This document shows positions 3,087 through 62,035 of a stretch of DNA of 64,000 nt, in pieces. The stretch covers positions 95,954-159,953 of the forward strand of contig JAHFMV010000001.1 of the NCBI GenBank assembly GCA_023267655.1. The letters are read 5' to 3'. The DNA is from Candidatus Kaiserbacteria bacterium (GTDB lineage: Bacteria; Patescibacteriota; Minisyncoccia; Phycocordibacterales; UBA2100). The translations under genes and the position numbers were made by a program. How positions within the stretch are numbered: the first letter of the stretch is position 1; each line of letters begins with the position of its first letter. The notes beneath the pieces were generated by a model, which was not told the origin of the DNA, made no database searches, and worked only from the letters and a program-made list of their open reading frames with translations.

Positions 3087-3233
3087 AGACAAAGTATACC
3101 CCTCACTCGTCGGTCGGAGAGTGAGGGGTATATATTGTTGTGGACAGTGGAAGTACGAATAAAGAAACACAGAGGACGGCTGATGATTTTTTCTCGTACC
3201 TGTGTGTTTGTGGCGGCATGGTACTATTTCCGC

Positions 3234-4091
3234 ATGAAAACCTTGCGAGAAACAATTGCAGATGCGCGTGCCCGCAAAGTCGCGGTGGGGCATTTTAACG
3301 TATCTGATAGCAATCAATTTAATGCGATTGTTGCGGCAGCCGCGGAACTTGGCGTGCCGGTCATTATTGGTGCAACAGAAGGCGAGCAAAAATTCTTTGG
3401 CACGCATGAAGTCGCGGCGCTTGTACGCGCCGCACGCGAGAAAAAAGGACTCTCCGTCTACCTCAATTCCGACCACACCCGCACAATCGAAGGCATGAAG
3501 GCGGCCGTTGATGCAGGGTTTGATGCAGTACTTTTTGACGGCGCGAAAGAAACGATCGAGCACAATATCGAATTGGTAAAAGAAACGGTTGCCTATGCAA
3601 AAGCAGCAGGGCGCGAAGTGCTCGTTGAAGGCGAACTCGGCTACATTGGCTCATCTTCGCAAGTACATGCGGACATTCCCGAAGGCGCGGGACTCGATAT
3701 GACGACGCCGGAGCTTGCGACGCGATTCGTGCAAGAGACCGGTGTTGATCTTCTCGCGCCATCCGTCGGCAACATCCACGGACTTCTCAAAGGCCGGGCG
3801 AAACCAGCGCTCGACTTGCCACGTATCGAAGCGATCAGTAAGGCCGTCGGTATTCCGATGGTTCTCCACGGCGCGTCCGGCGAAACTGATGCTGATGTCC
3901 ACGGCGCGATAGAGCGCGGTATGGGCATCGTGCACGTCAATACCGAAATCCGCGTCGCCTACAAAGACGCCATCGCGAGAGGCCTTGCCGAAAACGCCGA
4001 AGACATCGCTCCATATAAATATATGCTTCCGGCGATGGAAGCCGTCAAACAAGTCGTCCTCAAGAAATTGAAGGTTTTCAACGGGCTCTAA
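3234..4091 (+). CDS. fba: fructose-bisphosphate aldolase, class II
   Basis: Class II FBA/tagatose-bisphosphate aldolase signature (VAVGHFNVSD ... GELGYIGSSS ... SVGNIHGL ... VLHGASG); start taken at MKTLRETI, exact start coordinate uncertain by a few nt. Confidence 0.85.
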   Translation: MKTLRETIADARARKVAVGHFNVSDSNQFNAIVAAAAELGVPVIIGATEGEQKFFGTHEVAALVRAAREKKGLSVYLNSDHTRTIEGMKAAVDAGFDAVLFDGAKETIEHNIELVKETVAYAKAAGREVLVEGELGYIGSSSQVHADIPEGAGLDMTTPELATRFVQETGVDLLAPSVGNIHGLLKGRAKPALDLPRIEAISKAVGIPMVLHGASGETDADVHGAIERGMGIVHVNTEIRVAYKDAIARGLAENAEDIAPYKYMLPAMEAVKQVVLKKLKVFNGL

Positions 4092-4132: not shown

Positions 4133-4217
4133 GGAGGCGTCGCACAGTGGTCTAGTGCACCGCCTTGGAAAGGCGGCATGCCGCAAGGCATCGCGAGTTC
4201 GAATCCCGCCGCCTCCG
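4133..4217 (+). tRNA. tRNA-Ser (anticodon GGA)
   Basis: Cloverleaf read by eye: acceptor GGAGGCG/CGCCTCC, D-arm GCAC..GTGC, anticodon stem CCGCC/GGCGG with loop TTGGAAA (anticodon GGA), a long 17-nt variable arm, and a T-loop TTCGAAT; 85 nt. Confidence 0.7.
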
Positions 4218-8502: not shown

Positions 8503-9486
8503 ATGTTAGTTGGAAAAGCGTCTCCGGACGACATGAATTTGCATCCTATACGCTATCAGTGGGCGTATGATCTCTATCAGCAAGCAGTCAGAAACACGTG
8601 GTTCCCGCACGAAATTGCGCTCAAAGAAGACCTCGGCGACTGGGCAAACATGACCGACGACGAGCGGCATGCGGTGAAATTCCTCATGGCGTTCTTCAAC
8701 CCAGCGGAACTGATTGTGAACCGCTCGATCGCGCTCGGTATTTATCCGTATCTCAAATCACCGGAGTGCCACTTGTATCTCGCCAAACAAATGTGGGAAG
8801 AGGCAAACCACTGCGTCGCATTCGAGTACGTCTTGCAGACGTTCCCGTTTGATCGCACCGAAGTCTTTGGCATCCATTTGCAGACACCATCGATGCTCGC
8901 CAAAGAAGCGTACATCAACAGATACATGAAGCGGATGATGGAAGATTCGCTCGATGTGGAGACGCCGGAAGGGAAGAAAGACTTTCTGCGCAATCTCGTC
9001 GCGACGAACATCGTGATGGAAGGCATTTGGTTCTATTCGGGATTCATGGTGGCGCTTTCATTCCGTCAGAGAAATCAGCTGCGCAATTTGGGCTCGATGA
9101 TCAATTGGGTGATCCGCGATGAATCGCTCCATTTGAAATTCGGGATCAATCTCATTCATAACATCCTTGAAGAGAACGCAGAATTAGTCGATGCGTCGTT
9201 TGCGCAGGAAATCGCCGGTATCATCGTCGAAGGTGTGAATTTGGAGACCGCCTACAACCAAGACCTCTTCCCGCGCGGCATCCTCGGGCTGAACGCGGAT
9301 TATGTAAATCAATACGTGCAATACGTTGCGGATCGCCGTTTGGAGGAATTAGGCCTCGGCAAGCACTACAACGTCACCAATCCGGCAAAATGGATGTCCA
9401 CGGCGACGGATGTCTTTGAGTTGGTCAACTTCTTCGAGGCTCAGAATACGTCGTACGAGGTGGATTCTGGCTCGAAACATAAGTAA
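8503..9486 (+). CDS. nrdB: ribonucleoside-diphosphate reductase beta subunit (ferritin-like di-iron)
   Basis: Di-iron ligand motifs (EANHCVAFEY, VIRDESLHL) and the tyrosyl-radical-region pattern; immediately downstream of nrdA. Confidence 0.85.
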   Translation: MLVGKASPDDMNLHPIRYQWAYDLYQQAVRNTWFPHEIALKEDLGDWANMTDDERHAVKFLMAFFNPAELIVNRSIALGIYPYLKSPECHLYLAKQMWEEANHCVAFEYVLQTFPFDRTEVFGIHLQTPSMLAKEAYINRYMKRMMEDSLDVETPEGKKDFLRNLVATNIVMEGIWFYSGFMVALSFRQRNQLRNLGSMINWVIRDESLHLKFGINLIHNILEENAELVDASFAQEIAGIIVEGVNLETAYNQDLFPRGILGLNADYVNQYVQYVADRRLEELGLGKHYNVTNPAKWMSTATDVFELVNFFEAQNTSYEVDSGSKHK

Positions 9487-9488
9487 TC

Positions 9489-9617
9489 CGCTCGCGGCTA
9501 AGAAGTTTGAAAACCCGACGCCGCCGGAAAACCTCCTCTCGGTTGCGCTCCGGGCCGCTAGGCCAAGTCTTGCAACCTCGCTGAGCTTTTCCGGCGCCGT
9601 TTGACGTTTTTCAAACT
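9489..9617 (+). repeat. ~130-nt nested-palindromic repeat element, copy A; candidate MITE-like element or structured RNA
   Basis: Outer arms GTTTGAAAAC/GTTTTTCAAAC, then CCGACGCCGCCGGAAAA/TTTTCCGGCGCCG, inner CTCGGTTGC/GCAACC and GGCC/GGCC; a second copy, ~95% identical over the 80-nt core, lies inverted at 43383-43530. Confidence 0.6.
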
Positions 9618-9651
9618 TCAAAGTCGACTCACTGCTGTCGCTGTAAAAAAG

Positions 9652-9684
9652 AATCGCGGCAGAGCTTTCGCTCTGCCGCACATT
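9652..9684 (-). terminator. rho-independent terminator for the 9687-9983 gene
   Basis: On the minus strand, GCGGCAGAGCGAAAGCTCTGCCGC is followed by GATTCTTTTTTA. Confidence 0.55.
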
Positions 9685-9686
9685 GC

Positions 9687-9983
9687 CTACACGAACATTT
9701 CCCAATTACTCTCCGCAAATGGATGCATGAGAAGATACGCTTGGTACAGTTTCCTTTCGAAGTCAGGCGTTCCTCGCTCATCACGCTTCTCGAAACCATA
9801 TAGCTCCGCCGCTAGCCTGTTGAATGCTTCGATGTTTGCCGCGAAGCAACGCCGGAATACCGGGACATCTCTGTACATGTCACCCATGAAATGTTCATTG
9901 GGTTTCCCGCAGAAGAAAAGGGCGAAGTTGTTCTGTTGTATGTCGAACTCCTCAAGACTGAGGACGGGGTCTTTGTTGGCCAT
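9687..9983 (-). CDS. hypothetical protein (98 aa)
   Basis: Compact ORF with a terminator downstream; the overlapping plus-strand ORF 9601-10092 looks low-complexity and spurious. Confidence 0.45.
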   Translation of the reverse strand: MANKDPVLSLEEFDIQQNNFALFFCGKPNEHFMGDMYRDVPVFRRCFAANIEAFNRLAAELYGFEKRDERGTPDFERKLYQAYLLMHPFAESNWEMFV

Positions 9984-12310: not shown

Positions 12311-12318
12311 TGACATAT

Positions 12319-12634
12319 CTGCACATTAAGCCGGATTCTGTCGAGAGCAGCCATTTATCTGGGATGAGTGTTGCCACTCACCTCAAGCGGTTCTCCGTTC
12401 AGTTTTTAGGCTGGACGACACGACCTTGCACGTAGATAGGAAATTTAGCCGTTGCACCCGGTATGTTTCCATACCGATTGATCCTTGCGGATCCCTTTGT
12501 CTCTCGACGCGGGCGTCACTGTTCGCATCCCTAGGATTACCCCGGCGGGCGTTACCCGCTACCGTCCTGCACCGTAAGGTGCACGTGTCCGGACTTTCCT
12601 CTCAATCTTTCGAAAGAGCGACTGCTTAATGCAG
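12319..12634 (-). ncRNA. rnpB: RNase P RNA (bacterial type A-like, compact)
   Basis: The minus strand contains GAGGAAAGTCCGGAC (P4 5' strand), CGGGTAACGCCCG, GGGTGCAACGG and ACAGAATCCGGCTTA (P4 3' strand); a P1 pairing CTGCATTAAG/CTTAATGTGCAG closes the molecule; the ORFs called in this interval are spurious. Confidence 0.75.
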
Positions 12635-12707
12635 AAAAGTACTATACCATTTTTCTCCACAGTGCGCGAGCGCTTGAGATTTTTTCGAGCATGCTACAAT
12701 TTCCGGA

Positions 12708-15029
12708 ATGGAATTACACGCAACGTCTCGTCGAGGTATTTTTAGTGTTGCTGATGGCATCACGCGGATTTTTTTAGTTGGGCTCGCGGCGATCCTGCCG
12801 TTTTTCATTATCCCGCTCCCGTATGCAGCGGTCGCGCAATCGAAAGTGTTGTTCATCGCCGCGGTGGTTATCATCGCTATCATCGTATGGGTGTATGCGC
12901 GGCTCACCGAGGGCATCGTGCACGTGCCACAAAGCAGCCTCGTGTACGTGAGCATGTTGCTGCCTATCGCGTATCTCATCTCGACTCTTGCTACCGGATG
13001 GAATACCGCGTCACTCGTCGGACAAGGTACGGAACAAGATACACTCGCCGCGGTTGCGCTTATGTCGTCACTCTTTGTCCTCACGGCATTTGCGTTCGTC
13101 GGTAACAACGCGGCAATGCGCCTCGTAGTACAAGGGCTCGTTCTCGGACTCATTGGCCTCTTTGCGCTCGAAGCGCTCTACGTGTTCTTCCCGCAGTGGT
13201 TCTCGCTCGGGGGCGCTCTTGTCGGGCAAACGGCGAACCCATTTGGCTCATGGCACGACCTCGGCATCATTGCCGGCTTATCGTTTTTCATTTCGGTAAT
13301 GCTATGGCGTGCGGATTACTTCACCGGCTGGAAGCGATACATCCCGATTGCTTTGTCTCTCTGTGCGGCGTTTTTCCTGATCGTCATCCATTTTAATGAT
13401 GTGTTATGGGCGACGGCGATTTTGTTTGGCATTACGGTTGCCGCGGTTGCACGCACGTCACTCTCGCACGACGGCCTAACGCCCGTGCAAACGCTGCGTC
13501 GCGTGGCCGTTCCGTTTGCACTCGCCGTCGTTCTCGCGGGCGCGGCCTTTTTCGGCACAAAAATATGGGACAAACTTCCCGCACCAATCCAAATCGTGCA
13601 GACGGAGGTGCGTCCATCGTGGCAGGGCACGTTCGACGTTGCGAAACAGTCTCTCCAAGCACCGGGCGAATTTATTTTCGGCTCGGGTCCGAATTCATTC
13701 ATTCGCGAGTGGGGATTGCACAAGCCGACGAGCGTGAATGCGACGCCGTTTTGGGATTCTGATTTCAATTATGGTGTGGGCATCATTCCAACCTCGATAT
13801 TTACCGCTGGCGCGATCGGCCTCATCGCATGGGCAGCACTCATTCTCGTGATGCTCGGCCTCGTGTGGCGCTTTGTGCGCGAATCACGACCATTGAGCCA
13901 CGGGCGCGCTCTCTTTGGCGTCACGCTCGTTAGCATCGCGTACCTCGTTGCGTACTACATGATCTACACGCCGGGGACGGCGCTCACGGCCGCGACATTC
14001 ATCGGCCTCGGCTTCCTTGCAGTCCTCGCGACCGGCGACGCGCCACTGCGCGTGGTGCGCATTGGTGTCTCGAATATCGGCGATGGAATACGAATGCTGA
14101 TTCTTGTTGTCATCGTTCTCGCGGCGATTGCTGCAGCGGGTATCGTCGGACGGGAAGTTCTTTCGAATATCTTTGTCAACAAAGCCGCGTACATTTATCA
14201 GAACTCAAATGATGTCGCACAGTCAGGAAACGTCCTTGGAGTCGCGCTTCTTATTTCTCCGCGCAATGATCGCGCGCATCGCGCGGCAGCGGAATTGGGC
14301 ATTGTCGAGCTTGCAAAACAGATCAAAGAAACTGATCCGAACAATCAGGCAGCCGCGCAGAAATTAAAAGTGACGCTGCAAGATACGATCCAGCATGGTC
14401 TCACCGCGGTCTCAATCGACGGCACCAACTACCAAAATTGGCTCTTGCTCGCGCAGGTATACAGCAATTTGGCCGGCGCAAATATCGCCGGCGCGTACGA
14501 TCAAGCAAAAACAGCGTATGAAAAGGCGTTTGCCGCGCATCCGACGAATCCGGTGCCGAAGTTCCGTCTTGCGCAGCTTGCGGTCGCCGCAGGCGACCGC
14601 GCATCTGCTCGTACGTACTTGCAGGATGCACTCAAGTTAAAGCCTGATTTTGCCGCGGCGCAGTTCTTACTCTCGCAAGTCGAAGCGGCCGATGGCAAAG
14701 GCGATGCCGCCGTGACCGCCGCAACGGCCGCAGTGCAGCAAGTACCGCAAGACCCGCTCGGCTGGTTTAATCTCGGCTATATCTTATATGCCGGACAGTC
14801 GTACCAAAATGCCGCGCAGGCGCTTGCGCAAGCCGTGCAGCTCGCGCCCGATTATTCCAACGCACTGTTCTATCTCGGCTTAAGTCTCTATCATGTGGGT
14901 GACAAAGCGGATGCGGTCATTGCGCTTGATCGCGTCGTGCAATTGAATCCGGGTGAGGCGTGGGTGGCGCAAGTATCGGCGAACATTAAAGCTGGCAAAG
15001 ATCCAATGGCGGGAGTACAGCAAAAATAA
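12708..15029 (+). CDS. O-antigen ligase (Wzy_C)-like polytopic membrane protein with C-terminal TPR repeats
   Basis: ~12 TM helices with a Wzy_C-like loop; the C-terminal ~250 aa are Ala-rich TPR-like repeats (AHPTNPVPKFRLAQLAVAAGD..., NALFYLGLSLYHVGDKADA). Confidence 0.7.
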   Translation: MELHATSRRGIFSVADGITRIFLVGLAAILPFFIIPLPYAAVAQSKVLFIAAVVIIAIIVWVYARLTEGIVHVPQSSLVYVSMLLPIAYLISTLATGWNTASLVGQGTEQDTLAAVALMSSLFVLTAFAFVGNNAAMRLVVQGLVLGLIGLFALEALYVFFPQWFSLGGALVGQTANPFGSWHDLGIIAGLSFFISVMLWRADYFTGWKRYIPIALSLCAAFFLIVIHFNDVLWATAILFGITVAAVARTSLSHDGLTPVQTLRRVAVPFALAVVLAGAAFFGTKIWDKLPAPIQIVQTEVRPSWQGTFDVAKQSLQAPGEFIFGSGPNSFIREWGLHKPTSVNATPFWDSDFNYGVGIIPTSIFTAGAIGLIAWAALILVMLGLVWRFVRESRPLSHGRALFGVTLVSIAYLVAYYMIYTPGTALTAATFIGLGFLAVLATGDAPLRVVRIGVSNIGDGIRMLILVVIVLAAIAAAGIVGREVLSNIFVNKAAYIYQNSNDVAQSGNVLGVALLISPRNDRAHRAAAELGIVELAKQIKETDPNNQAAAQKLKVTLQDTIQHGLTAVSIDGTNYQNWLLLAQVYSNLAGANIAGAYDQAKTAYEKAFAAHPTNPVPKFRLAQLAVAAGDRASARTYLQDALKLKPDFAAAQFLLSQVEAADGKGDAAVTAATAAVQQVPQDPLGWFNLGYILYAGQSYQNAAQALAQAVQLAPDYSNALFYLGLSLYHVGDKADAVIALDRVVQLNPGEAWVAQVSANIKAGKDPMAGVQQK

Positions 15030-15150
15030 TTTTTAATTATCAATTTCCGATTTTCAATCAACCTCCAATGCAGCAATTTTCAAACAGAGTTCTTTTCAAA
15101 TCATTGGAACATTGAGAATTCAATGAAAATTGAGAATTGTAAATTGAAAT
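15030..15150 (+). repeat. AT-rich ~115-bp intergenic repeat, copy 1
   Basis: AATTATCAATTTCCGATTTTCAATCAA...AATTTTCAAAC...CATTGGAACATTGAGAATTCAATGAAAATTGAGAATTGTAAATTGAAATTTCT; a second copy (~80% identity with one 17-nt indel) lies at 39003-39115; the AT-rich composition contrasts with the ~55% GC background. Confidence 0.65.
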
Positions 15151-15157
15151 TTCTCTT

Positions 15158-16615
15158 TTAAAATTTCGCTAAAAGGGCATCTATCACTTCCTCCGTCTCG
15201 GACGGTGAAGATATTTGCCTTGTCTGAATTCCCGTCGGAATAACGACAGCATCATTGCCGCCTTCATAAAATCCATCGCCGATGAAGCGCATGTCGCTCG
15301 GATGGACGCGCAGTTCTTTGGCGAGCCATTCGACCCCATGCGCTTTCGTCATGCCGAGGCGTGTTACGTCGACTGTCGTTTTTCCGCCGATGAGGACTTC
15401 GTATTCGGGAAGTTTAGTCTTCACGATAGTAATCATTTTCTGGCGTTTCTCGCTCGTCGGATCCCACGCACGCTTTTCGGCCTGCGACGCGCCGTCAGGG
15501 AGCGCCGTAAAGGCGACCGATGTATCACGTTCAAGAATACGCGACGTGTCGCTATTTTCGCTAAAGATTTTGCTTTCGCGTACCGCGTCTTTGAGAGTTG
15601 TCGAGATTTTCATGCGTTCACTGTCCGTGAGCGGAAAGTTATACTTTTCGCGCCATTCATGATGCTCCCACGCGTGGCATTGCGCAGCGCTATCGGAAAA
15701 AACGTACCAATGAGCATCGGTTGGTTCCTTTGGAATTCGACTCAAGATATCGCGTTCCATACGCGCGTATGCCGCGCCCGACATGATCGCGATTGGGATT
15801 TTTTGGGAAAGACGCAACAGCTTGTCGAGGATTGTATCGCTCGGCGGGACAAAACTGTCCGCGAGTGTGTCGTCCATGTCGAAAATAATCGCGCGTGGCA
15901 ATGATCCAGAAAGGTTTAACCTTTCTCGCGGCTCTGTTGTGGGCTGGAAAAGGTTAAACCTTTTTTCTGATCCCTGTTTGGCCATTTTTTGTTTGAAAAT
16001 TTCGTACGCGATCGGCAGCATCGTGACGAGAATGATGCCGATGATGATGTATTCGAGATAGTGCTCGATACCGGGAATCGAGTGCCCAAGGAAGTAACCG
16101 CCAAACGTAAATCCACCGCCCCAAATTAACGCCCCGAGGACGTTGTAAAAGAGGAAGGTGCGGTATTGCATGGCGCCCACGCCGGCGAGGATCGGCGCAA
16201 ACGTGCGGACGATCGGGATAAACCGTGCGAGCAGGATCGTTTTCGTGCCGTGCTTCTCAAAAAAGTCATGCGTCTGCCGCAAGTATGCTTTCTTGAAAAA
16301 ACGCGAGTCTTCGCGTTTGAAAAGCGCCGGGCCGACCCATGCGCCAAACCAATAGCCGATTGAATCGCCGAGGATTGCAGCCGTGAGAACGATCGCAAGA
16401 AGTATGTAAATATTGAGGAATCCTTGTGAAGCGAGGAATCCGGACGTGAACAGGAGGGAAGCGCCCGGGAGCGACACCGCAAAGAACAGCCCGCTCTCGG
16501 CAAGAATAATCGCAAAAATGCCCGGATACCCGAGGATTTGAATCAAGTGAGCAAGATCGATCCCGAAGAGCATGAGTGAGTAGTATGACGCAGAAACGCC
16601 TAAGAACCAACACAT
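15158..16615 (-). CDS. fusion protein: DedA/SNARE-associated membrane domain joined to a HAD-family hydrolase domain
   Basis: The N-terminal part has the DedA/VTT motif (GYPGIFAIILAESGLFF..SLPGASLLF); the C-terminal part carries HAD motifs (IIFDMDDTLADSF, ...GDGFYEGGNDA); the linker is encoded by a pair of 15-bp palindromes. Confidence 0.7.
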   Translation of the reverse strand: MCWFLGVSASYYSLMLFGIDLAHLIQILGYPGIFAIILAESGLFFAVSLPGASLLFTSGFLASQGFLNIYILLAIVLTAAILGDSIGYWFGAWVGPALFKREDSRFFKKAYLRQTHDFFEKHGTKTILLARFIPIVRTFAPILAGVGAMQYRTFLFYNVLGALIWGGGFTFGGYFLGHSIPGIEHYLEYIIIGIILVTMLPIAYEIFKQKMAKQGSEKRFNLFQPTTEPRERLNLSGSLPRAIIFDMDDTLADSFVPPSDTILDKLLRLSQKIPIAIMSGAAYARMERDILSRIPKEPTDAHWYVFSDSAAQCHAWEHHEWREKYNFPLTDSERMKISTTLKDAVRESKIFSENSDTSRILERDTSVAFTALPDGASQAEKRAWDPTSEKRQKMITIVKTKLPEYEVLIGGKTTVDVTRLGMTKAHGVEWLAKELRVHPSDMRFIGDGFYEGGNDAVVIPTGIQTRQISSPSETEEVIDALLAKF

Positions 16616-38290: not shown

Positions 38291-39004
38291 ATGATTGAAA
38301 TCAAGGACATTACGAAATCCTATGGCGAGGGAGACGCGGCGTTCCAGGCGCTGAAAGGCGTTACGTTTACGATTGAAGACGGCGAGTTTGTTGCGATCAT
38401 GGGACCATCCGGAAGCGGTAAATCGACGCTCATGCACATCCTCGGCTGCCTTGATACACCGACAAGTGGCACCTATCTCCTCGATGGTAAAGACGTCTCG
38501 ACCTTCGATGACGAACGCCTCGCCGATATTCGCAAGGACAAAATCGGATTTGTATTCCAATCGTTCAACCTTTTGCCGCGTACCAGCGTGCTCCGTAACG
38601 TCATGCTGCCTCTTGTGTACGCCGGCGTCGGCGAAAAAGAGCGTGAAGAGCGCGCGACAAAGGCTTTGCACGCTGCGGGGCTGACCGAATTGCATTTCCA
38701 GCACAAATCAAACCAAATTTCCGGCGGCCAGATCCAGCGCGTCGCGATCGCACGAGCGCTTGTGAACGACCCGACGCTCATCCTCGCGGACGAACCGACG
38801 GGTAATCTCGACACAAAAACGGGCGAGATTGTGCTCGGCACATTCCAGAAATTAAACAAAGAACACGGCCGCACGGTGATCTTGATTACGCACGAGCATG
38901 ACGTTGCCGCGCATGCGGAGCGAATTATTACACTTCGCGACGGATTGATTGTGAGTGATTCAAAAAAGCATGCGAGGAAGCATGCGAGACATGTGCATGA
39001 TTAA
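38291..39004 (+). CDS. ABC transporter ATP-binding protein (MacB/LolD-type)
   Basis: Walker A GPSGSGKST, signature ISGGQIQRVAIARAL, Walker B LILADEPTGNLD. Confidence 0.85.
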   Translation: MIEIKDITKSYGEGDAAFQALKGVTFTIEDGEFVAIMGPSGSGKSTLMHILGCLDTPTSGTYLLDGKDVSTFDDERLADIRKDKIGFVFQSFNLLPRTSVLRNVMLPLVYAGVGEKEREERATKALHAAGLTELHFQHKSNQISGGQIQRVAIARALVNDPTLILADEPTGNLDTKTGEIVLGTFQKLNKEHGRTVILITHEHDVAAHAERIITLRDGLIVSDSKKHARKHARHVHD

Positions 39005-39115
39005 TTTTCAATTATCAATTTCCAGTTTTCATTCAAGGCTCAATGTATTAATTTTCAAACATTGAAACATTGGAAATTCATTGAAAATTGCAAAATTATA
39101 AGTTGAAAATTCTTA
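39003..39115 (+). repeat. AT-rich ~115-bp intergenic repeat, copy 2
   Basis: AATTATCAATTTCCAGTTTTCATTCAA...AATTTTCAAACATTGAAACATTGGAAATTCATTGAAAATTGCAAAATTATAAGTTGAAAATTCTT; aligns with 15030-15150. Confidence 0.65.
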
Positions 39116-41764: not shown

Positions 41765-41833
41765 GGCATACAAGGTCGAACCTTGTATGTGGCTCAACAG
41801 AGCCTCAAGAAAGGTTAAACCTTTCGGTAAAAG

Positions 41834-42804: not shown

Positions 42805-43275
42805 ATGTGCCATCGGTACGTCGTTTGGGCCGAAGTGAGCCCTCCAAACCAAGGAGAAATCACGGTGTATAAGAGCATCACGAAGCGTTTTTCGAGATCT
42901 GTCCGCGAAATGATCGACGAAACCGGCTATGCGTCAGCGTCGCTGGCCGAGGCGATGGACTTTGTCAGCAGGCTTGAGATGGTCATCATCGGTGGTTGTC
43001 GAGCAGGTCAGCATCAGGAGCTAAACGAATTCCTGATTCCCGGTCGTCAGCATTATGCGGCTGTGCGCAACCTTTTTCGGCTGTTGCATCGAGTCACTGT
43101 GGAGTATACGCACGAACGTCTGACGGGTATTCGCGTAACCATCAAGTGGCATATGCAGCGGGGTGTCGAGCAGTCGAATATCGACACGACCCATGGCGAA
43201 TTGAATGTCACGTTTATCCACGCGCGCGTCGTTGCCATCGGCTTCACTGAGAATCTATTTCAGTACCGACCCTAG
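42805..43275 (+). CDS. hypothetical protein
   Basis: ORF only; no recognised domain; true start uncertain. Confidence 0.3.
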   Translation: MCHRYVVWAEVSPPNQGEITVYKSITKRFSRSVREMIDETGYASASLAEAMDFVSRLEMVIIGGCRAGQHQELNEFLIPGRQHYAAVRNLFRLLHRVTVEYTHERLTGIRVTIKWHMQRGVEQSNIDTTHGELNVTFIHARVVAIGFTENLFQYRP

Positions 43276-43382
43276 CGGCGTTTTTTTAGCCGGTCGTTCC
43301 GAACTGGGACGGCCGGCGATTCTTTTTATACCATTGCGACCGTAAGTGGCGGGGAGTTTTCATTTCAGAATTACCTCTAAGC

Positions 43383-43530
43383 GAGACGGCGCCTCGATTT
43401 GAAAATTGGCAAACGACGCCGGAAAAGCTCAGCGAGGTTGTAAGACTTGGCCTAGCGGCCCGGAGCGCAACCGAGAGGAGGTTTTCCGGCGGCGTCAATT
43501 TTCAAATCGTGGACGCCGCGAGCGGGCGAT
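43383..43530 (-). repeat. ~130-nt nested-palindromic repeat element, copy B (inverted relative to copy A)
   Basis: The reverse complement of 43413-43494 is GACGCCGCCGGAAAACCTCCTCTCGGTTGCGCTCCGGGCCGCTAGGCCAAGTCTTACAACCTCGCTGAGCTTTTCCGGCGTC, one mismatch from 9516-9597; the flanks share GTTTGAAAA/TTTTCAAA arms. Confidence 0.6.
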
Positions 43531-43543
43531 TGGAAAGAGAACG

Positions 43544-44599
43544 TCAAATCCGCCGATGCGAATAGTCGACGGCGACTTCATCCAGTACTTTGCGTCGCCG
43601 GAGCGAGTGGTCGGAGGCGGGGACTGCCGTTGAGGGGAGGGAGATGGAGATGGTGGTGCCGCGGCCGACGGCGCTGCGCACGGTGATTTTGCCGCGATGC
43701 AGCTTTACGAGCTCCGACACGATCGCGAGCCCAAGACCCGAGCCGCCATAGGAGCGGTTGCGTGATTGTTCCGCGCGATAGAACGGTTCGAAAATATGGA
43801 ACAGATCTTGCCGCGCGATGCCCGCACCGGAGTCCGACACAATAATTTCCACATGCGACGGCGAACCGTTTCCCGGCGTACTAATCTGTTCGACCGTGAC
43901 CGAGATCCGCCCACCGCGCGGCGTGTAGTTGATCGCATTTTTGACGACATTCATGATGATCTGCTCGAGCCCCGCCGGATTCCCCCATACATAACTCGAA
44001 TCGCCTTTGCGAAAATTCATTGCAAGGTTGCGCGCTCGCGCCAAATTCTCTAATTTTTCCATAACACCCGCAGCGATATCTCCCGCGTTGACCGCAGAAA
44101 ATTCAATGCGCTCTGGCCTGACGCTTGCTGAAAGCGAGAGAAGGTTGTTGATGATCTGTGACGCGCGATCTAATTCTTCGACTGTGCTGTTCATGATTGC
44201 CTGTGTATCTGGCGGGATTTCTTGCGAGAGGAGCGCGACTTCGGTGTTCGTCTTAATAACGGCGAGCGGCGTGCGGAGTTCATGCGCGACATTGCCGATG
44301 AATTGCTTTTGCGACGCAAGCGCGTTGCGTGTGGGCCCGAGCGCGATGCGCGTGAGGAGATAGCCGAATGCGATCGTAGCCGCGGCGGTGATAAACGAAA
44401 TCGCGGAGAGATTTTGCGTGCGGATATCGCTCAGCGCTGGAATCATTTGCGCTATCGGCGCGGTCGAGGATGCCGCGATGGATTCGCGTACGCCGCCGAT
44501 TATCGCGACGGAAATGTCGTGGTACAGGTAATCAATGACGATGCTCACGAGGATTAGGAGGAAAATCGAGAACACACCGAGCATTCCGATAACATTCAC
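43544..44599 (-). CDS. sensor histidine kinase (HisKA plus HATPase_c)
   Basis: H-box AHELRTPL; N/G1/G2 boxes (NAINYT, DSGAGI, GGSGLGLAIV); the ORF-track start at 44728 overlaps the RR by ~100 nt, so start trimmed to GTG 44599 (ATG 44584 is an alternative). Confidence 0.75.
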   Translation of the reverse strand: MNVIGMLGVFSIFLLILVSIVIDYLYHDISVAIIGGVRESIAASSTAPIAQMIPALSDIRTQNLSAISFITAAATIAFGYLLTRIALGPTRNALASQKQFIGNVAHELRTPLAVIKTNTEVALLSQEIPPDTQAIMNSTVEELDRASQIINNLLSLSASVRPERIEFSAVNAGDIAAGVMEKLENLARARNLAMNFRKGDSSYVWGNPAGLEQIIMNVVKNAINYTPRGGRISVTVEQISTPGNGSPSHVEIIVSDSGAGIARQDLFHIFEPFYRAEQSRNRSYGGSGLGLAIVSELVKLHRGKITVRSAVGRGTTISISLPSTAVPASDHSLRRRKVLDEVAVDYSHRRI

Positions 44600-44630
44600 C
44601 TGCGTGCGGAGGAACGGATCGTACTGATAT

Positions 44631-45305
44631 TTATCCGCGAAGGCGGTAGCCGATGCCACGGACCGTTTCCAGAATGTTCGGATCGCCTGCGGTAGCCAAT
44701 TTGCGTCGAAGATTTTTGACATGGACATCTACTACGTTGCTAAAGGACTCGTAATTGAAATCCCAGAGGTGCGAGAGCAGGTCTTCACGGTTAATGACTT
44801 GGTTCGGATGTCGCATGAAGTATTCAAGGAGGCCAAACTCTTTCAGTGTGAGCGGGATTTCTTTGGTCTCGCGCGTGACCGTGCGCAATGCGGGATTCAG
44901 TTCAATGTTTTCGACTTTGAGCACATCCGGCATCGATTCATTCGGGCGGCGCAGAAGTGCGTGCACGCGCGCCGTCAACTCCTCAAACGAGAACGGCTTC
45001 ACGAGATAGTCGTCGGCGCCCGAGAGGAGGAGATCAACTTTTGTGTCGGTTTCGCTCCGCGCGGTGAGGATGAGTATCGGCGTTGTGACGCCCATTTCGC
45101 GCGCCTGTTTACAAATTTCGTGCCCGTCCATGGAGGGAAGCATCAGATCGAGGATAATAAGGTCGTAATCCATACGATGGAGCGACATGCGGGTGAGCGC
45201 CTTTTTTCCATCATTGATGGTATCGACGCTGTAGCCCTTGAGCGTGAGCCCCTTGGCCACGGCATCTGCGAGCTTCTTTTCATCTTCAACAACAAGTATT
45301 TTCAT
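44631..45305 (-). CDS. OmpR-family response regulator (REC plus winged-helix)
   Basis: REC acidic pocket (ILVVEDE, DLIILDLMLP) and the OmpR wHTH C-terminus (VHVKNLRRKL...GYRL). Confidence 0.85.
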   Translation of the reverse strand: MKILVVEDEKKLADAVAKGLTLKGYSVDTINDGKKALTRMSLHRMDYDLIILDLMLPSMDGHEICKQAREMGVTTPILILTARSETDTKVDLLLSGADDYLVKPFSFEELTARVHALLRRPNESMPDVLKVENIELNPALRTVTRETKEIPLTLKEFGLLEYFMRHPNQVINREDLLSHLWDFNYESFSNVVDVHVKNLRRKLATAGDPNILETVRGIGYRLRG

Positions 45306-54212: not shown

Positions 54213-54215
54213 TAA

Positions 54216-54262
54216 TGACATAAGTCCGACTTCCCTCAATGAAGTAAGTCGGACTTATGTCA
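54216..54262. repeat. REP-like perfect hairpin, left flank of the RAYT
   Basis: TGACATAAGTCCGACTT...AAGTCGGACTTATGTCA. Confidence 0.7.
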
Positions 54263-54272
54263 TACTACTCGC

Positions 54273-54977
54273 ATGCGCGTCGAACCTCACGAGATAGATG
54301 CGATCTTGCATGTCGTAAAACGCGGCGCACGGGGCATGGAGATTGTTCGGGATGAAGCAGATCGTCGTCGCTTCGCCGGGCTACTCTTTACACTCAACGA
54401 TGAATATACCGACAGTAACCGTATTCGGAGTACAAGCACATTGCAGATGTTTGAGCGTCCGAATTCGTGGCCGGAGCCGCAACCAATAACGCAGATTCTC
54501 GCATGGACGCTTATGCCTAATCATTTCCACCTTGTCGTAAAAGAGACTCAAGAAGGCGGTATCGCGACTTTCATGCAGAGGCTGTGCGGGAGTATGTCGG
54601 TTGGCTTTAACGCGAAGTACAATGAACAGGGGAGTATTTTTCAGGGCGGATATCGGGGGAAAGTTGTTGATGATGACAACTATCTTCGATACTTGATATT
54701 TTATGTGTTGGTAAAAAACGTAATGGAACTGTATCCCGGTGGGCTTCGCGTCGCAATCCGCGAGTTTGACCGCGCATGGCAATGGGCGCTCGCGTATCCG
54801 TACTCGAGTTTGCCTGTATATGCTCAAAATAAAACATCACCGATTGTTGACAGAACGCTCGCAGACGAGATGTGTAAAAGTGAAGCAGCATTTCGCAATG
54901 AGGCTAAGGAAATGTTGTCGATACACATGGAATCGCGAGCTGAAGATTTAAATGCAGTGTTGCTGGAAGAATGGTGA
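54273..54977 (+). CDS. REP-associated tyrosine transposase (IS200/IS605 TnpA-like HUH)
   Basis: HUH motif (MPNHFHLVV), the RAYT-typical QGGYRG, and a catalytic Tyr region (YLRYLIFYV). Confidence 0.75.
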   Translation: MRVEPHEIDAILHVVKRGARGMEIVRDEADRRRFAGLLFTLNDEYTDSNRIRSTSTLQMFERPNSWPEPQPITQILAWTLMPNHFHLVVKETQEGGIATFMQRLCGSMSVGFNAKYNEQGSIFQGGYRGKVVDDDNYLRYLIFYVLVKNVMELYPGGLRVAIREFDRAWQWALAYPYSSLPVYAQNKTSPIVDRTLADEMCKSEAAFRNEAKEMLSIHMESRAEDLNAVLLEEW

Positions 54978-55022
54978 AGTAAGTCCGACTTACGTCATGA
55001 CGTAAGTCGGACTTACTTCACG
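54975..55022. repeat. REP-like perfect palindrome, right flank of the RAYT
   Basis: GTGAAGTAAGTCCGACTTACGTCATGACGTAAGTCGGACTTACTTCAC. Confidence 0.7.
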
Positions 55023-58625: not shown

Positions 58626-59945
58626 ATGCTCTCTCGGTGCATCCGTATCGCCTGTGTTGTGATGCTTCTACCAACATGCGCTCTTGCGCAGGATTTTTCT
58701 TCAACGAATTTTACGGTAACAGCGCCAACGATCGTCCCCGGTGGATATTCAACATCAGCCTCATTTGGTTTACAGAGCGTGATCGGTGAGATGAGCATTG
58801 GTACTTCGAGTGCACTGTCGTTCGGTGCAAACGTCGGATTTCCTTTTTTCCCGCAAGTCTCAACGCCGACGGTAAGTGCGACAGCGGGAGATGCGCAAGT
58901 TGCACTTTCGTGGAGCGCATCAACTGCGTACGTGGGATGGACCGTGGGCGGCTATAGCGTCGGGCAATCGACAACAAATAGCGGCCCCTACAGTTTTTCA
59001 TCGGTTGGAAATGTCACGAGTTCGACGCGCACGGGACTGACGAACAGTACGACGTATTATTTTGTTATCAGAGTTCTGGATGGTCTCGGCAATACCATCG
59101 CAACTTCTTCGCAAGTAAACGGCACACCCGCGTCGTCGGGTGGGGGCGGAAGTTCTGGTGGGGGCGGAGGCGGAGGTGGAGGCGGTGGAGGAGGGGGCGG
59201 GGGAGGCGGTGGAGGCGGGGAGTTGGGTAGTATTGTGAATTTTTCTGGACGCGCGTATCCGAATCGCACCGTGACTCTCTTAAAAGACGCGCAGGTTGTC
59301 TCATCGGCGAATGCTGGGGCTGACGCGCGCTTTGCAATGAGCATCGGTGGCGTCGCCGCAGGTAACTATATTTTCTCGGTGTATAGCGAAGACAAAGACG
59401 GCATCCGCTCCAGCCTCCTCACGTTCCCCGTCAGTGTTTCGGGGACGACAATGACCGACGTCACCGGCATTTTTATCGCGCCGACGATCACGGCGGACAA
59501 AAGCCAGGTGAAGCAAGGCGACAACATCACGTTCTTTGGGCAGAGCGCGGCAAATTCGGACATCACCATCACCGTTCATTCCGATCAAGAAATCTATGGT
59601 AAAGCGAAATCGGATGCGAGCGGCGTCTATTTGTATACGCTCGATTCGCAGCAGCTTGAGATGGGTGACCACTCCGCAAAATCAAAAAGCGCGCTCGCGA
59701 GCGAGATAAGTTCGTTTAGCGCGGCTGTGCAATTTACCGTGGGCGAGAAAAATGTCGAACTCGAAAAAGAAAAGAAAGCTCCGAAAGCTGACGCGAATGG
59801 TGACGGCAAAGTAAATCTCGTTGATTTTTCCGTCGTCGCGTATTGGTACGGCCGCGCAAAGCCGCCCGCAAAGGCAGATCTGAACGGCGACGGCAAAGTA
59901 AACCTCGTTGACCTTTCAATATTGGCTTATAACTGGACCGGCTGA
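58626..59945 (+). CDS. secreted protein with fibronectin-III-like domain, poly-Gly linker and C-terminal dockerin-like repeats
   Basis: Signal peptide; FN3-like (TVSATAGDAQVALSWS); a 26-residue Gly/Ser run; two dockerin type I-like Ca-binding repeats (DANGDGKVNLVDFSVVAYWYG and DLNGDGKVNLVDLSILAYNW). Confidence 0.6.
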   Translation: MLSRCIRIACVVMLLPTCALAQDFSSTNFTVTAPTIVPGGYSTSASFGLQSVIGEMSIGTSSALSFGANVGFPFFPQVSTPTVSATAGDAQVALSWSASTAYVGWTVGGYSVGQSTTNSGPYSFSSVGNVTSSTRTGLTNSTTYYFVIRVLDGLGNTIATSSQVNGTPASSGGGGSSGGGGGGGGGGGGGGGGGGGGGELGSIVNFSGRAYPNRTVTLLKDAQVVSSANAGADARFAMSIGGVAAGNYIFSVYSEDKDGIRSSLLTFPVSVSGTTMTDVTGIFIAPTITADKSQVKQGDNITFFGQSAANSDITITVHSDQEIYGKAKSDASGVYLYTLDSQQLEMGDHSAKSKSALASEISSFSAAVQFTVGEKNVELEKEKKAPKADANGDGKVNLVDFSVVAYWYGRAKPPAKADLNGDGKVNLVDLSILAYNWTG

Positions 59946-59946
59946 T

Positions 59947-60819
59947 ATGCGCCTCGCTCTTACCATTCTCCTTACCCTCGGTATCGCGTCGCCTGCAGCG
60001 GCTGCGGAACTGCAGCTGCAGGCGCAGGGCGCTGCACAAGCAGGTGGGCAGATCGTATTGACCGCATTACTCGATAGCGGTGGTGAATCCATTAATGCTA
60101 TAGAAGGAACCTTGCAGTATCCGCACGACCTCGTGAAGCTTCGAGAAATTCGCGACGGCAATTCTCTGGTTAATTTTTGGGCCGAACGTCCGCACGACGG
60201 CGCGGACGGCATCCGCTTTGCCGGCGTTACGCCGGGTGGTTATGCCGGGAGTGGCAGGGAGGTGTTTTCTCTGGTTTTCGATGTCCAAAAGGGTGAGAAG
60301 ATTCGCTACACGCTTCGGGATGCGCGTGCGCTCATAAATGACGGTCAAGGGACTCCGGTATCGCTCACGCTTTCTCCCACGGTGATTCTTGTCCCGACGG
60401 TATCGGGTGCAATCGACCCTACGCACGACGTCACGTTGCCCGAGCCGTTCACCCCTGTACGAGGAAGCGATCCGGCGCTGTTTTCTGGTGCGCCGTTCAT
60501 TGCGTTCGTCACACAAGACAAGCAATCGGGCGTCGATCATTATGAAGTTGCAGAGCAGAAAGGTTTTATGATGCCGTCAGTACTCTATCACCAGCTTACG
60601 TGGGAGCATGCCGAAAGCCCATTTGCGCTGCGCGACGCGAACGAGGACGCGTACGTATATGTGAAAGCTGTCGATCGCGCAGGCAATGAGCGTGTTGCAG
60701 TCCTATCCCCTCGTAATCTGCCTTTGCGCTACAATCCACCCTTCATTCTCGCTATACTGCTTCTTATGCTCGGCGTCTGGGTGATCTACCGGCGCAGGGT
60801 TCACCAATTGTATGAATAA
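59947..60819 (+). CDS. cohesin-like domain protein, C-terminally membrane-anchored
   Basis: Signal peptide; cohesin-like beta-sandwich pattern (ELQLQAQGAAQAGGQIVLTALLDSGGESINAIEGTLQYPHDLVKL...FSLVFDVQKGEKIRYTL); C-terminal TM helix; start trimmed to MRLALT just after the dockerin gene stop. Confidence 0.5.
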   Translation: MRLALTILLTLGIASPAAAAELQLQAQGAAQAGGQIVLTALLDSGGESINAIEGTLQYPHDLVKLREIRDGNSLVNFWAERPHDGADGIRFAGVTPGGYAGSGREVFSLVFDVQKGEKIRYTLRDARALINDGQGTPVSLTLSPTVILVPTVSGAIDPTHDVTLPEPFTPVRGSDPALFSGAPFIAFVTQDKQSGVDHYEVAEQKGFMMPSVLYHQLTWEHAESPFALRDANEDAYVYVKAVDRAGNERVAVLSPRNLPLRYNPPFILAILLLMLGVWVIYRRRVHQLYE

Positions 60820-62035
60820 ACTTTTGTACAACGTAGTATTACTTTCACTCTGCGCGTTTCTCATACCTTCCTTCGTCTCGGCAGCAACGATGCGTATTGC
60901 GCCTGCGGCGGCGTCCGTAACAGTCGGAGGAACAGCATCGATTGCCATTCAAGTAACGAGTGCGGACCAGCCGATGAATGCAGCATCAGGTATCGTACAT
61001 TTTCCCGCCGATTCGCTTCAAGTAGTATCACTTTCAAAAAGCGGGACCATTATCAGTCTCTGGGCGCAGGAGCCGTCATATTCAAACAGTGCCGGCACGA
61101 TTAATTTCGAAGGCGCGGTTTTGAATCCAGGATTTACCGGCTCCAATGGTACTGTGCTCACCATCACGTTTAAAGCGAAAAGTGCGGGCGTGGCACCGAT
61201 TACGATTGGATCGGGATCAGTGCTTGCAAACGACGGTAGTGGTACGGAAATTTTGACATCGGTTTCCGGAGGGAATATGAGCGTCACCGCAGCAGCGCCG
61301 GCGCCCGCAGTTACACCTTCTGCACCGGCATCTCCGACTGCGGCGCGATTAGTTATTACATCCACGACACATCCTGATGCGGAAAAATCATACCGCGCAC
61401 CTGTGGTACATCTTGCGTGGAATAATCCACCGGGTACCGAGGCTGTACGGATTTTGTATGACAAGAATCAGGGGACTACTCCGAGCGTGACCTACGATCC
61501 ACCGATTGAATCTAAAGAGATTGAACCTGGTGATGGCACCTGGTATTTCCATGCGCAAGCGCGCAGCGGAGGTGGATGGGGGCCAGTCACACATTTCAAA
61601 TTCACCATTGATCCGAATGCTCCGGAAGAGGTGGTACCTGCTGAACCGCCAATGCCGCAACTACCAGTTACTCACAATGCGACGCCATCGTTGTTCAGTT
61701 CGATCACACAATGGATTCTTGGTTCACAAACAATGCTACTTGAAATTGCGCTTGCCATTTCGTTGCTGATGCTTGCATTGGTTTCTCTATCACACAAACG
61801 CTCTCTGCGTCAGACACATGGGGGTCGTGTACGACATGTGCACGATTTGGTGCACCGTGAATTTAATGATCTGAAAGATGCGCTCACGGATGAACTCTCG
61901 GCGCTCAATCGCGCGCAATCGAAAAGAAATTTGACCACCGAAGAAAAGCGAATCGTCGCACGGTTTACAAAAATGCTCGACACATCAGAGCGAACGATTG
62001 GAACGGAAATCGATGAGCTTGGCACGAAAGGGTAA
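60812..62035 (+). CDS. second cohesin-like domain protein with C-terminal TM helix and coiled coil
   Basis: Signal peptide; cohesin-like pattern (MRIAPAAASVTVGGTASIAIQVTSADQPMNAASGIVHFPADSLQVVSLS...LTITFKAKSAG); Pro/Ala linker; TM helix; coiled-coil tail. Confidence 0.5.
   Translation: MNKLLYNVVLLSLCAFLIPSFVSAATMRIAPAAASVTVGGTASIAIQVTSADQPMNAASGIVHFPADSLQVVSLSKSGTIISLWAQEPSYSNSAGTINFEGAVLNPGFTGSNGTVLTITFKAKSAGVAPITIGSGSVLANDGSGTEILTSVSGGNMSVTAAAPAPAVTPSAPASPTAARLVITSTTHPDAEKSYRAPVVHLAWNNPPGTEAVRILYDKNQGTTPSVTYDPPIESKEIEPGDGTWYFHAQARSGGGWGPVTHFKFTIDPNAPEEVVPAEPPMPQLPVTHNATPSLFSSITQWILGSQTMLLEIALAISLLMLALVSLSHKRSLRQTHGGRVRHVHDLVHREFNDLKDALTDELSALNRAQSKRNLTTEEKRIVARFTKMLDTSERTIGTEIDELGTKG

Follow-up and report, generated by a model that had tools for sequence, protein, structure and literature searches.

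A dispersed family of hairpin repeats of about 147 nt in groundwater Patescibacteria, with copies behind nrdB and a histidine kinase gene

Two copies of a palindromic element in the window

The window, by which we mean the whole 64-kb stretch of DNA analysed in this work (G+C content of 52%), contains two inverted copies of a palindromic non-coding element, each of which is found 3' of a gene that is read in the same direction. Copy A follows nrdB (8503-9486, PF00268) on the plus strand and starts 0 nt past the TAA stop codon of this gene (9484-9486). The 5' motif of copy B is located 17 nt past the TGA stop codon (43544-43546) of a histidine kinase gene (HisKA/HATPase_c domains; 43544-44728) on the minus strand. 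When aligned with the copies B, E, F, and G, which occupy unrelated loci (see below), the full element A comprises 147 nt, corresponding to positions 9487-9633 (+); by alignment, copy B is of the same length and occupies positions 43380-43526 (-). The original prediction had recognized the inverted pair and its location behind co-oriented genes at both loci, but its extent of about 130 nt was slightly too small. It had also described a core of 82 nt that recurs in reverse complement with one mismatch; the single mismatch is correct, but the length is 80 nt. This 80-nt string is present exactly at 9517-9596 (+) and with one mismatch at 43417-43496 (-), and no match was obtained in 100 dinucleotide shuffles. 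A repeat scan of the 64-kb window identified 128-nt inverted arms at 9488-9615 and 43398-43525 that are 88% complementary, and a search with a covariance model with filters off set the number of copies in the window at two.

Each copy was predicted to fold into a single long nested hairpin, as had been proposed. The minimum free energies at RNA parameters are -58.5 kcal/mol for A and -68.4 kcal/mol for B (z scores of -5.2 and -6.0, respectively), and none of 200 shuffles was as stable. Folding with DNA parameters is likewise strong, with z scores between -4.3 and -7.3. In every copy known so far the antisense strand folds more stably than the sense strand, and in six of the seven the difference is about 10 kcal/mol, which argues against selection on the sense RNA alone. 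The repetition also creates the two spurious ORFs that had been reported to share the peptide PPENLLSVALRAARPSL, at 9410-9604 (+) and 43286-43498 (-). Spurious antisense translations of the element have furthermore been deposited as the proteins P0001, P0002, and P0003, which derive from 9349-9681 (-) of the window, L101:3254-3406, and L102:3020-3172, respectively.

Two independent ENA assemblies (L001, L002) contain copy A within the same flanking sequence, and the same applies to copy B (L091, L092), which indicates that the repeat is not an assembly artefact. Each of the copies A, B, and D is supported by two to six independent assemblies in which the flanks are identical. An assembly duplication, which the original prediction had named as a possible refutation, or a chimera therefore has a negligible probability. 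An observation in favour of such an artefact is that contig L003 (Ga0137414_1258780) carries the element twice. The two halves of this contig are inverted duplicates that differ by many indels, and the contig itself probably arose as a chimera or a hairpin during assembly; the element copies at 951-1064 and 3712-3821 were counted as one locus.

Several other repeats and features were noted in the window. A second dispersed family is formed by a 67-nt direct repeat of 79% identity (15020-15130 and 38995-39110) that is AT-rich and contains recurring TTGAAAAT/ATTTTCAA motifs; both times it begins exactly at the stop codon of a plus-strand gene, encoding a TPR protein and an ABC ATPase, respectively. 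A 54-nt inverted repeat pair with 78% identity and AAGGTTTAACCTT palindromes (15909-15962 and 41772-41825) has one member within a 485-aa ORF with a VTT domain and the other in the spacer before a VanY gene. Two related hairpins at 2474-2512 and 3095-3133 (TATACCCC...GGGGTATAT, 85% identical) are found on either side of a PaaX-like gene. A gene for a 119-aa 23S_rRNA_IVP / bAvd-like four-helix-bundle protein (1163-1522) lies within 23-nt inverted repeats that are 96% complementary (1121-1143 and 1533-1555), and this arrangement looks as if a small cassette had been inserted between the genes for LemA and an M48 peptidase. Owing to the bAvd-like gene, the two copies of the element were also considered as the TR/VR pair of a DGR; this was rejected, since both copies lie outside genes and the differences between them are not confined to adenines. 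No reverse transcriptase was seen in the window. Neighbouring proteins were found to contain dockerin (58626-59945) and cohesin (60812-62035) domains, a cellulosome-style pairing that seems unusual for a CPR bacterium. The window also encodes RNase P RNA (12311-12638, -) and a tRNA with a long variable arm (4133-4217, +).

Further copies and the anatomy of the unit

The search for further copies that had been suggested was successful. Five more independent copies were identified in other metagenome contigs, which amounts to seven independent copies of the core (A to G), all exactly 86 nt long. An exact 21-mer scan of 241 M metagenome records returned three loci (L003, L004, and L005), two of which are real. 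The first corresponds to copy C, with its core at L003:967-1052. In L005 the element follows an RF1 gene and is truncated where the contig ends; an RF1 protein look-up retrieved the complete copy D after the RF1 gene in six further Hainich assemblies. The match in L004 was dismissed as a chance 21-mer within a coding region. A HMMER search of 1.84 billion protein representatives with the antisense peptide of the element identified two 50-aa spurious ORFs, which led to copy E, 3' of rplN and sense to it in L101, and to copy F, 3' of a class-II aaRS gene and sense to it in L102. A word-indexed protein search with the antisense peptide gave no candidate, although a 110-aa ORF containing this peptide is in the collection. 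Copy G was detected in L102 by the core covariance model and resides in a divergent spacer, co-oriented with the gene 37 nt downstream; beyond G, this model identified no copy in 1.37 Mb of relatives' loci. There was no match in viral contigs (two 21-23-mers), nor in phage or plasmid collections. Public data thus hold few copies, namely, two real loci in the 241 M metagenome records and two ORF representatives with the element peptide among 1.84 billion. A candidate relative at L026:6822-6930, with TTTTAAAA arms at similar spacing, proved to be an unrelated hairpin (z score of -1.4).

The window derives from an uncultivated CPR bacterium. Its NrdB shares 98% identity with the counterpart in 'Patescibacteria group bacterium H52-bin124_1', and the related contigs are from Hainich groundwater wells. 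The best 80 NrdB loci all stem from MAGs, most of which are labelled Paceibacterota, Parcubacteria, or Saccharibacteria, with a few assigned to Gammaproteobacteria or Nitrospira or left unlabelled.

From the outside to the inside, the unit consists of a 5' end motif, a variable outer stem, and the 86-nt core, and it is closed by a 3' end motif. In copy A, the 5' motif TCCGCTCGCGGC (9487-9498, +), which is common to A, B, E, F, and G and to an element with a different interior, H, is followed by the 5' arm of the outer stem, GAAGTTTGAAAAC (9502-9514, +), which pairs with 9606-9619. The conserved core, ACGCCGCCGG...CGTTTG, spans 9518-9603 (+) and has a covariance-model score of 116.1 bits. As judged by folding, an unpaired TTGA(C) bulge precedes the 3' arm GTTTTTCAAACTTC (9606-9619, +), and alignment places the 3' terminal motif GTCGACTCACT (family consensus GCCGNCTCGCT) at 9623-9633 (+). 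The core of copy B is located at 43410-43495 (-; 116.6 bits), and the 5' side of its outer stem, GCGGCG.CC.CGATTTGAAAATTG (43496-43519, -), pairs on folding with the 3' side CAATTTTCAAATCG.GG.CGCCGT (43386-43405, -).

The core is built from the stems P1b (ACG/CGT), P2 (CGCCGGAAAA/TTTTCCGGCG), and P3 (CTC/GAG), a 5x5 internal loop, the stem P4 (GGTTGC/GCAACC in copy A), and the apex GGCC-GCTA-GGCC. A constant bulge of unpaired bases on the 3' side, TTGN, which comprises the last three core bases and the next base, makes the hairpin asymmetric. GACG precedes the core stem in six of the seven copies and CGTC follows it in five of the seven; the halves of about 40 nt are not themselves palindromic. 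The outer stem has 14-21 bp, and its sequence differs between copies (A, GAAGTTTGAAAAC; B, CGATTTGAAAATTG; C, GGGGATTTTAAAACC; D, GAATTCATCTTAAAATCG; E, GAAGTTTAAAAAAC; F, CAAGAAATTTCAAAAAG; and G, GAAGCTTAAAAAC), whereas the two arms are complementary within every copy. The original prediction was therefore right in describing the flanking arms as more diverged than the core.

The terminal motifs, TCCGCTCGCGGC at the 5' end and GCCGNCTCGCTACC at the 3' end, are common to five of the seven copies (A, B, E, F, and G), with TCCGCTCGC and CTCGCT at the ends. Their patterns can be written as T/C-CCGCTCGCG(G/A)C and GCCG(A/T/G)CTC(G/A)CT(ACC), i.e., GCCGNCTCGCT[ACC], respectively. Copy C has degenerate versions and copy D has neither motif. 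Both end motifs carry CTCGC, in direct rather than inverted orientation. This pair of end motifs also brackets an unrelated hairpin-forming interior in L102:8632-8761(-) (element H) and L102:1-112(+) (element I), and L102 thus harbours four members of this superfamily (F, G, H, and I) within 8.9 kb. No longer element bounded by the family termini was detected in the window or in 1.5 Mb of collected loci.

These features bear on the MITE-like nature that the original prediction had considered for the element. A classical MITE would be a deletion derivative of a DDE-transposase IS that moved through its TIRs and made target-site duplications. The element resembles such repeats in being small, non-coding, multicopy, and palindromic and in its presence at unrelated loci (those of nrdB, the histidine kinase, RF1, rplN, the aaRS, and other genes); in addition, contig L002 ends within the element, as contigs often do at repeats. 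However, no flanking direct repeat (target-site duplication) was found at any copy, with the boundaries of A, B, D, E, F, and G inspected, and apart from a T before the 5' motif in five of six copies nothing in the flanking target is conserved. Between most copies the outer arms match to only 53-74%, unlike TIRs, which should be the best-conserved part. The shared CTCGC termini are not inverted, and none of the window ORFs scanned proved to encode a DDE transposase. The absence of target-site duplications and of conserved TIRs largely refutes a classical MITE, which we regard as improbable. What stands of the claim is its substance, that of a probably mobile repeat, with at least seven copies and three orthologous sites that are empty in relatives.

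Structural conservation and genomic position

The structure of the element is maintained by selection, as is evident from compensatory changes in P4. This stem occurs in three fully complementary versions, namely, GGTTG/CAACC, GACTG/CAGTC (copy E), and GGTCG/CGACC (copies F and G). Covariation, which the original prediction had named as a property to be checked, amounts to three fully compensatory pair changes among the seven copies, compared to 0 in all slid controls and 10/500 shuffles, and it stems from two diverged lineages. Elsewhere in the core, the C.C mismatch 15 x 69 is replaced by A-T in F and G, and in the outer stem a G-C pair changes to A-T when copy A is compared with copy E. Two substitutions in copy F break pairs.

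Cores and arms tell different histories. The cores of A and B differ at two positions, those of B and D are identical, and F and G have four derived states in common; cores therefore group by contig (A with B, F with G). In arms and termini, A, E, and G are 82-85% identical although located at three unrelated loci, compared to 53-74% for all other comparisons, and arms thus group across contigs. The like arms of A, E, and G at unrelated loci imply that arms travel with the element. Core insertion into pre-existing 'empty' TTTGAAAA palindromes was considered and rejected, since the window contains no empty palindrome and the arms of A, E, and G move with the element. The incongruence between cores and arms may be due to gene conversion between cores within one genome.

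The element is absent from orthologous sites in the nearest available relatives. The nrdB site is empty in L006 and L007, which are syntenic across nrdA-nrdB and RNase P at about 82-85% DNA identity. At the RF1 site, the place of copy D is taken by a 46-nt spacer in L100, whose RF1 is 88% identical. At the kinase site, the gap between the kinase and VanY genes is 17 nt in L103-L107, where the kinase is 75% identical and the gene order RR-HK-VanY-DUF5666 is kept. Since these relatives are at about 75-88% protein or 85% DNA identity, and intergenic DNA is not alignable at this distance, loss is not distinguishable from gain, and near-identical strains gave no example of an excision or insertion polymorphism. 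At the kinase site (window 42805-43275 versus L103:6446-6464), the window has copy B together with an opposite-strand gene of 156 aa with its own terminator, so the insertion there exceeds the element alone. rplN and rplX are normally adjacent in the spc ribosomal-protein operon. In L101:2659-3436, copy E and a 169-aa ORF without a Pfam match are found between these two genes. The hypothesis that such small genes are cargo of the element was rejected, as the small genes beside the copies are unrelated to one another.

The distance of the 5' end from a co-oriented stop codon is 0 nt for A, 4 nt for E and F, 6 nt for H, and 17 nt for B, and the outer arm of copy D begins 4 nt past the stop codon of the co-oriented RF1 gene. 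Six of the eight placeable elements thus start 0-17 nt past a co-oriented stop. The other two are copy G, which is located in a divergent promoter region and has the start of a co-oriented gene 37 nt downstream, and element I, which is cut by the contig start and lies 76 nt before the start of a co-oriented gene. The three copies in co-directional contexts, D, E, and F, are all in sense orientation, which is no more than suggestive (P of about 0.1). In L102, the strand of the elements F, G, H, and I switches along with that of the genes around them over 9 kb, indicating that orientation follows transcription and not replication. An explanation by replication strand was discarded on account of these alternating strands within 9 kb; the GC skew of the window is uninformative.

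This position is what would be expected of a functional cis-acting RNA, the other reading offered by the original prediction, in which the host would retain, by selection, a stem-loop in the 3'-UTR that terminates the upstream transcript or stabilises it, and repetition would reflect the recruitment of a useful module. The start just past co-oriented stop codons, the sense orientation of D, E, and F, and the orientation of the L102 elements with local transcription are all in its favour. Furthermore, a canonical terminator is found at the convergent neighbours of nrdB and the kinase gene but not at these two genes themselves, and the compensatory changes in the stems agree with a structured RNA. 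REP-type repeats, too, are predominantly located downstream of coding regions and are plausibly RNA elements (PMC3733652). Being close to stop codons, the element is likely to be co-transcribed as a 3' stem-loop. As the primary identity of the element, however, such an RNA is unlikely. The Rfam search that had been recommended produced no match to the element: at the gathering threshold only the RNase P RNA and the tRNA were detected in the whole window, and a search of 9400-9720 at E<=10 found nothing on the element. No U-tract follows the hairpin, and a terminator scan flagged only the terminators of the neighbouring genes at 9655-9680(-) and 43289-43317(+). The greater stability of the antisense strand, the absence of the element after orthologous genes in relatives, and the location of copy G in a divergent promoter region and not past a stop codon also speak against it. 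Finally, near-identity over 86 nt, including loops and mismatches, across unrelated genes exceeds the needs of a stabiliser hairpin.

Relation to known repeats and a possible mechanism

Features reminiscent of integrons are the imperfect palindrome of about 130 nt located 3' of genes and in gene orientation, the conserved asymmetric unpaired bases with one strand that folds better, and small genes beside B, E, G, and H where relatives have none. attC sites (e.g., Vibrio cholerae repeats) measure about 60-140 nt, are likewise imperfect palindromes located 3' of genes, and display extrahelical bases and an asymmetry between strands; the element might then be a site-specific recombination site of this kind that marks the 3' boundary of mobile gene cassettes. 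However, it has no RYYYAAC / GTTRRRY core sites (R'/R''), the nearest sequence, CGTTTGN, being unpaired, and its copies form no co-oriented cassette array, as they are 34 kb apart, on opposite strands, and beside housekeeping genes. The neighbouring small genes are mutually unrelated, and no tyrosine recombinase or integrase was found among the window ORFs scanned. We therefore consider an attC-type site very improbable.

Other families of small repeats share some, but not all, of the characteristics of the element. Conserved TIRs and duplications of the target (TA or others) characterize Correia/NEMIS, RUP, and other TIR-type bacterial MITEs; the element resembles these repeats in being small, non-autonomous, co-transcribable, and able to fold into a hairpin, but it has neither conserved TIRs nor a target duplication. 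PATEs derived from IS200/IS605 have separate left-end and right-end hairpins and a conserved target of 4-5 nt 5' of the left end. With these the element shares the lack of TIRs and target-site duplications, the dependence on hairpins, and orientation-specific insertion; unlike them, it is a single nested hairpin with only a weak preference for T on the 5' side. ERIC/IRU sequences are imperfect palindromes of about 127 nt in transcribed intergenic regions near gene ends, and their copies are highly conserved. The element is similar to them in size, in its long imperfect palindrome, in its gene-end position, and in the high conservation between copies, but has no sequence relationship to them, occurs in another host phylum, and differs by its variable outer stem and by termini shared with elements of a different interior.

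REPINs and the REP-RAYT system provide a further comparison. In both cases non-coding extragenic hairpin repeats are made from two inverted halves and located mostly downstream of genes, and all copies of the element are intergenic. Both have no target-site duplications and no classical TIRs, structure matters in both, and near-identical 'master' sequences are found within a genome. The GACG...CGTC at the foot of the core stem is reminiscent of CGTC-tagged REPs. A REP unit measures 20-40 nt and has a conserved GTAG or CGTC tag at one end (PMC3733652). The element, in contrast, consists of one imperfect hairpin of 86 nt with an outer stem and end motifs instead of two such REPs with a variable spacer, its centre and not its arms is best conserved, and its copy number appears low, with two copies in the 64-kb window. 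REP/REPIN systems have tens to hundreds of copies in a genome.

As in REP-RAYT systems, a gene for an IS200-like Y1 transposase is present in the genome region. It encodes a Y1_Tnp/RAYT-like protein of 234 aa (54273-54977) with the motif HFHLVV (HFH) and is the only mobile-element protein among about 60 window ORFs scanned or annotated. The protein matches PF01797 with 28.8 bits (cut-off of 23), but NF047646 with only 29.4 bits, far below the cut-off of 80, and a PDB search gave no match. The gene is flanked by palindrome dimers at 54215-54263 and 54974-55021, as in REPtrons, with the unit TAAGTCCGACTTA and central ACGTCATGACGT (CGTC/GACG tags). This unit occurs nowhere else in the window and is unrelated to the element, which differs in this respect from REP-RAYT systems. 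Gene and dimers are REPtron-like, but a link to the element is speculative. In a 2013 survey, CGTC-tagged REPs were reported without an associated transposase gene (PMC3733652).

On the best reading, the element works most like REPINs and ERIC-type repeats; its features do not agree with those of classical MITEs, attC sites, terminators, or canonical REP-RAYT systems. A and B belong to a family of non-coding hairpin repeats of about 147 nt, and the reading that we favour, and hold to be probable, is that this family is restricted to a lineage of groundwater Patescibacteria and represents a non-autonomous, structure-dependent, REPIN/ERIC-like mobile element. The units would behave as non-autonomous selfish DNA, being present at unrelated loci, absent from like loci in relatives, and without coding capacity. 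They may be mobilised in trans as a folded single strand, in which the core and the end motifs would be recognised by sequence and the outer stem only as a helix. Such recognition would explain a near-invariant core next to arms that drift with compensatory changes. The most plausible type of enzyme would be an HUH/Y1 (IS200/RAYT-like) or similar structure-specific enzyme. Units may persist where they are least harmful, i.e., directly past stop codons and co-oriented with the gene, and those past stop codons are probably co-transcribed and would form a very stable 3' stem-loop. Against REPIN/ERIC-like mobility as the favoured reading, no partner enzyme is linked to the element, and the RAYT-like gene comes with unrelated palindromes. 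Furthermore, the grouping of cores by contig and of arms across contigs is not predicted by copy-and-paste of whole units alone and needs an added process, such as the gene conversion between cores mentioned above.

A bolder view, which is tentative and in our opinion rather doubtful, is that these repeats represent an undescribed class of modular mobile hairpins in the ultra-small genomes of CPR. The end motifs TCCGCTCGCGGC ... GCCGNCTCGCTACC would define the unit and interiors would be exchangeable, consisting of either the 86-nt core or the unrelated interior of H and I. Within one genome the cores would become homogenised, whereas the arms would be retained from genome to genome. The elements would insert a few nucleotides past stop codons and along transcription, by a targeting coupled to the termination of transcription or translation that possibly involves a divergent HUH/Y1 enzyme.

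The family was previously uncatalogued and belongs to a narrow CPR lineage, whereas its kind, that of REPIN/ERIC-like repeats, is already known. No description of palindromic repeat or MITE families in Patescibacteria was retrieved by a literature search. Genomes of Patescibacteria are about 1 Mb in size, tightly packed, and contain few repeats or mobile elements. The element, located past the stops of nrdB, RF1, rplN, and an aaRS gene, suggests that selfish or semi-domesticated DNA persists even in such genomes. In practical terms, it generates spurious ORF calls, of which P0001-P0003 pollute public protein sets, and it provides a strain-typing marker as well as a known cause of contig breaks in CPR assemblies. 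If it is true that the stop-proximal, transcription-oriented placement reflects targeting rather than survivorship, this would be mechanistically new.
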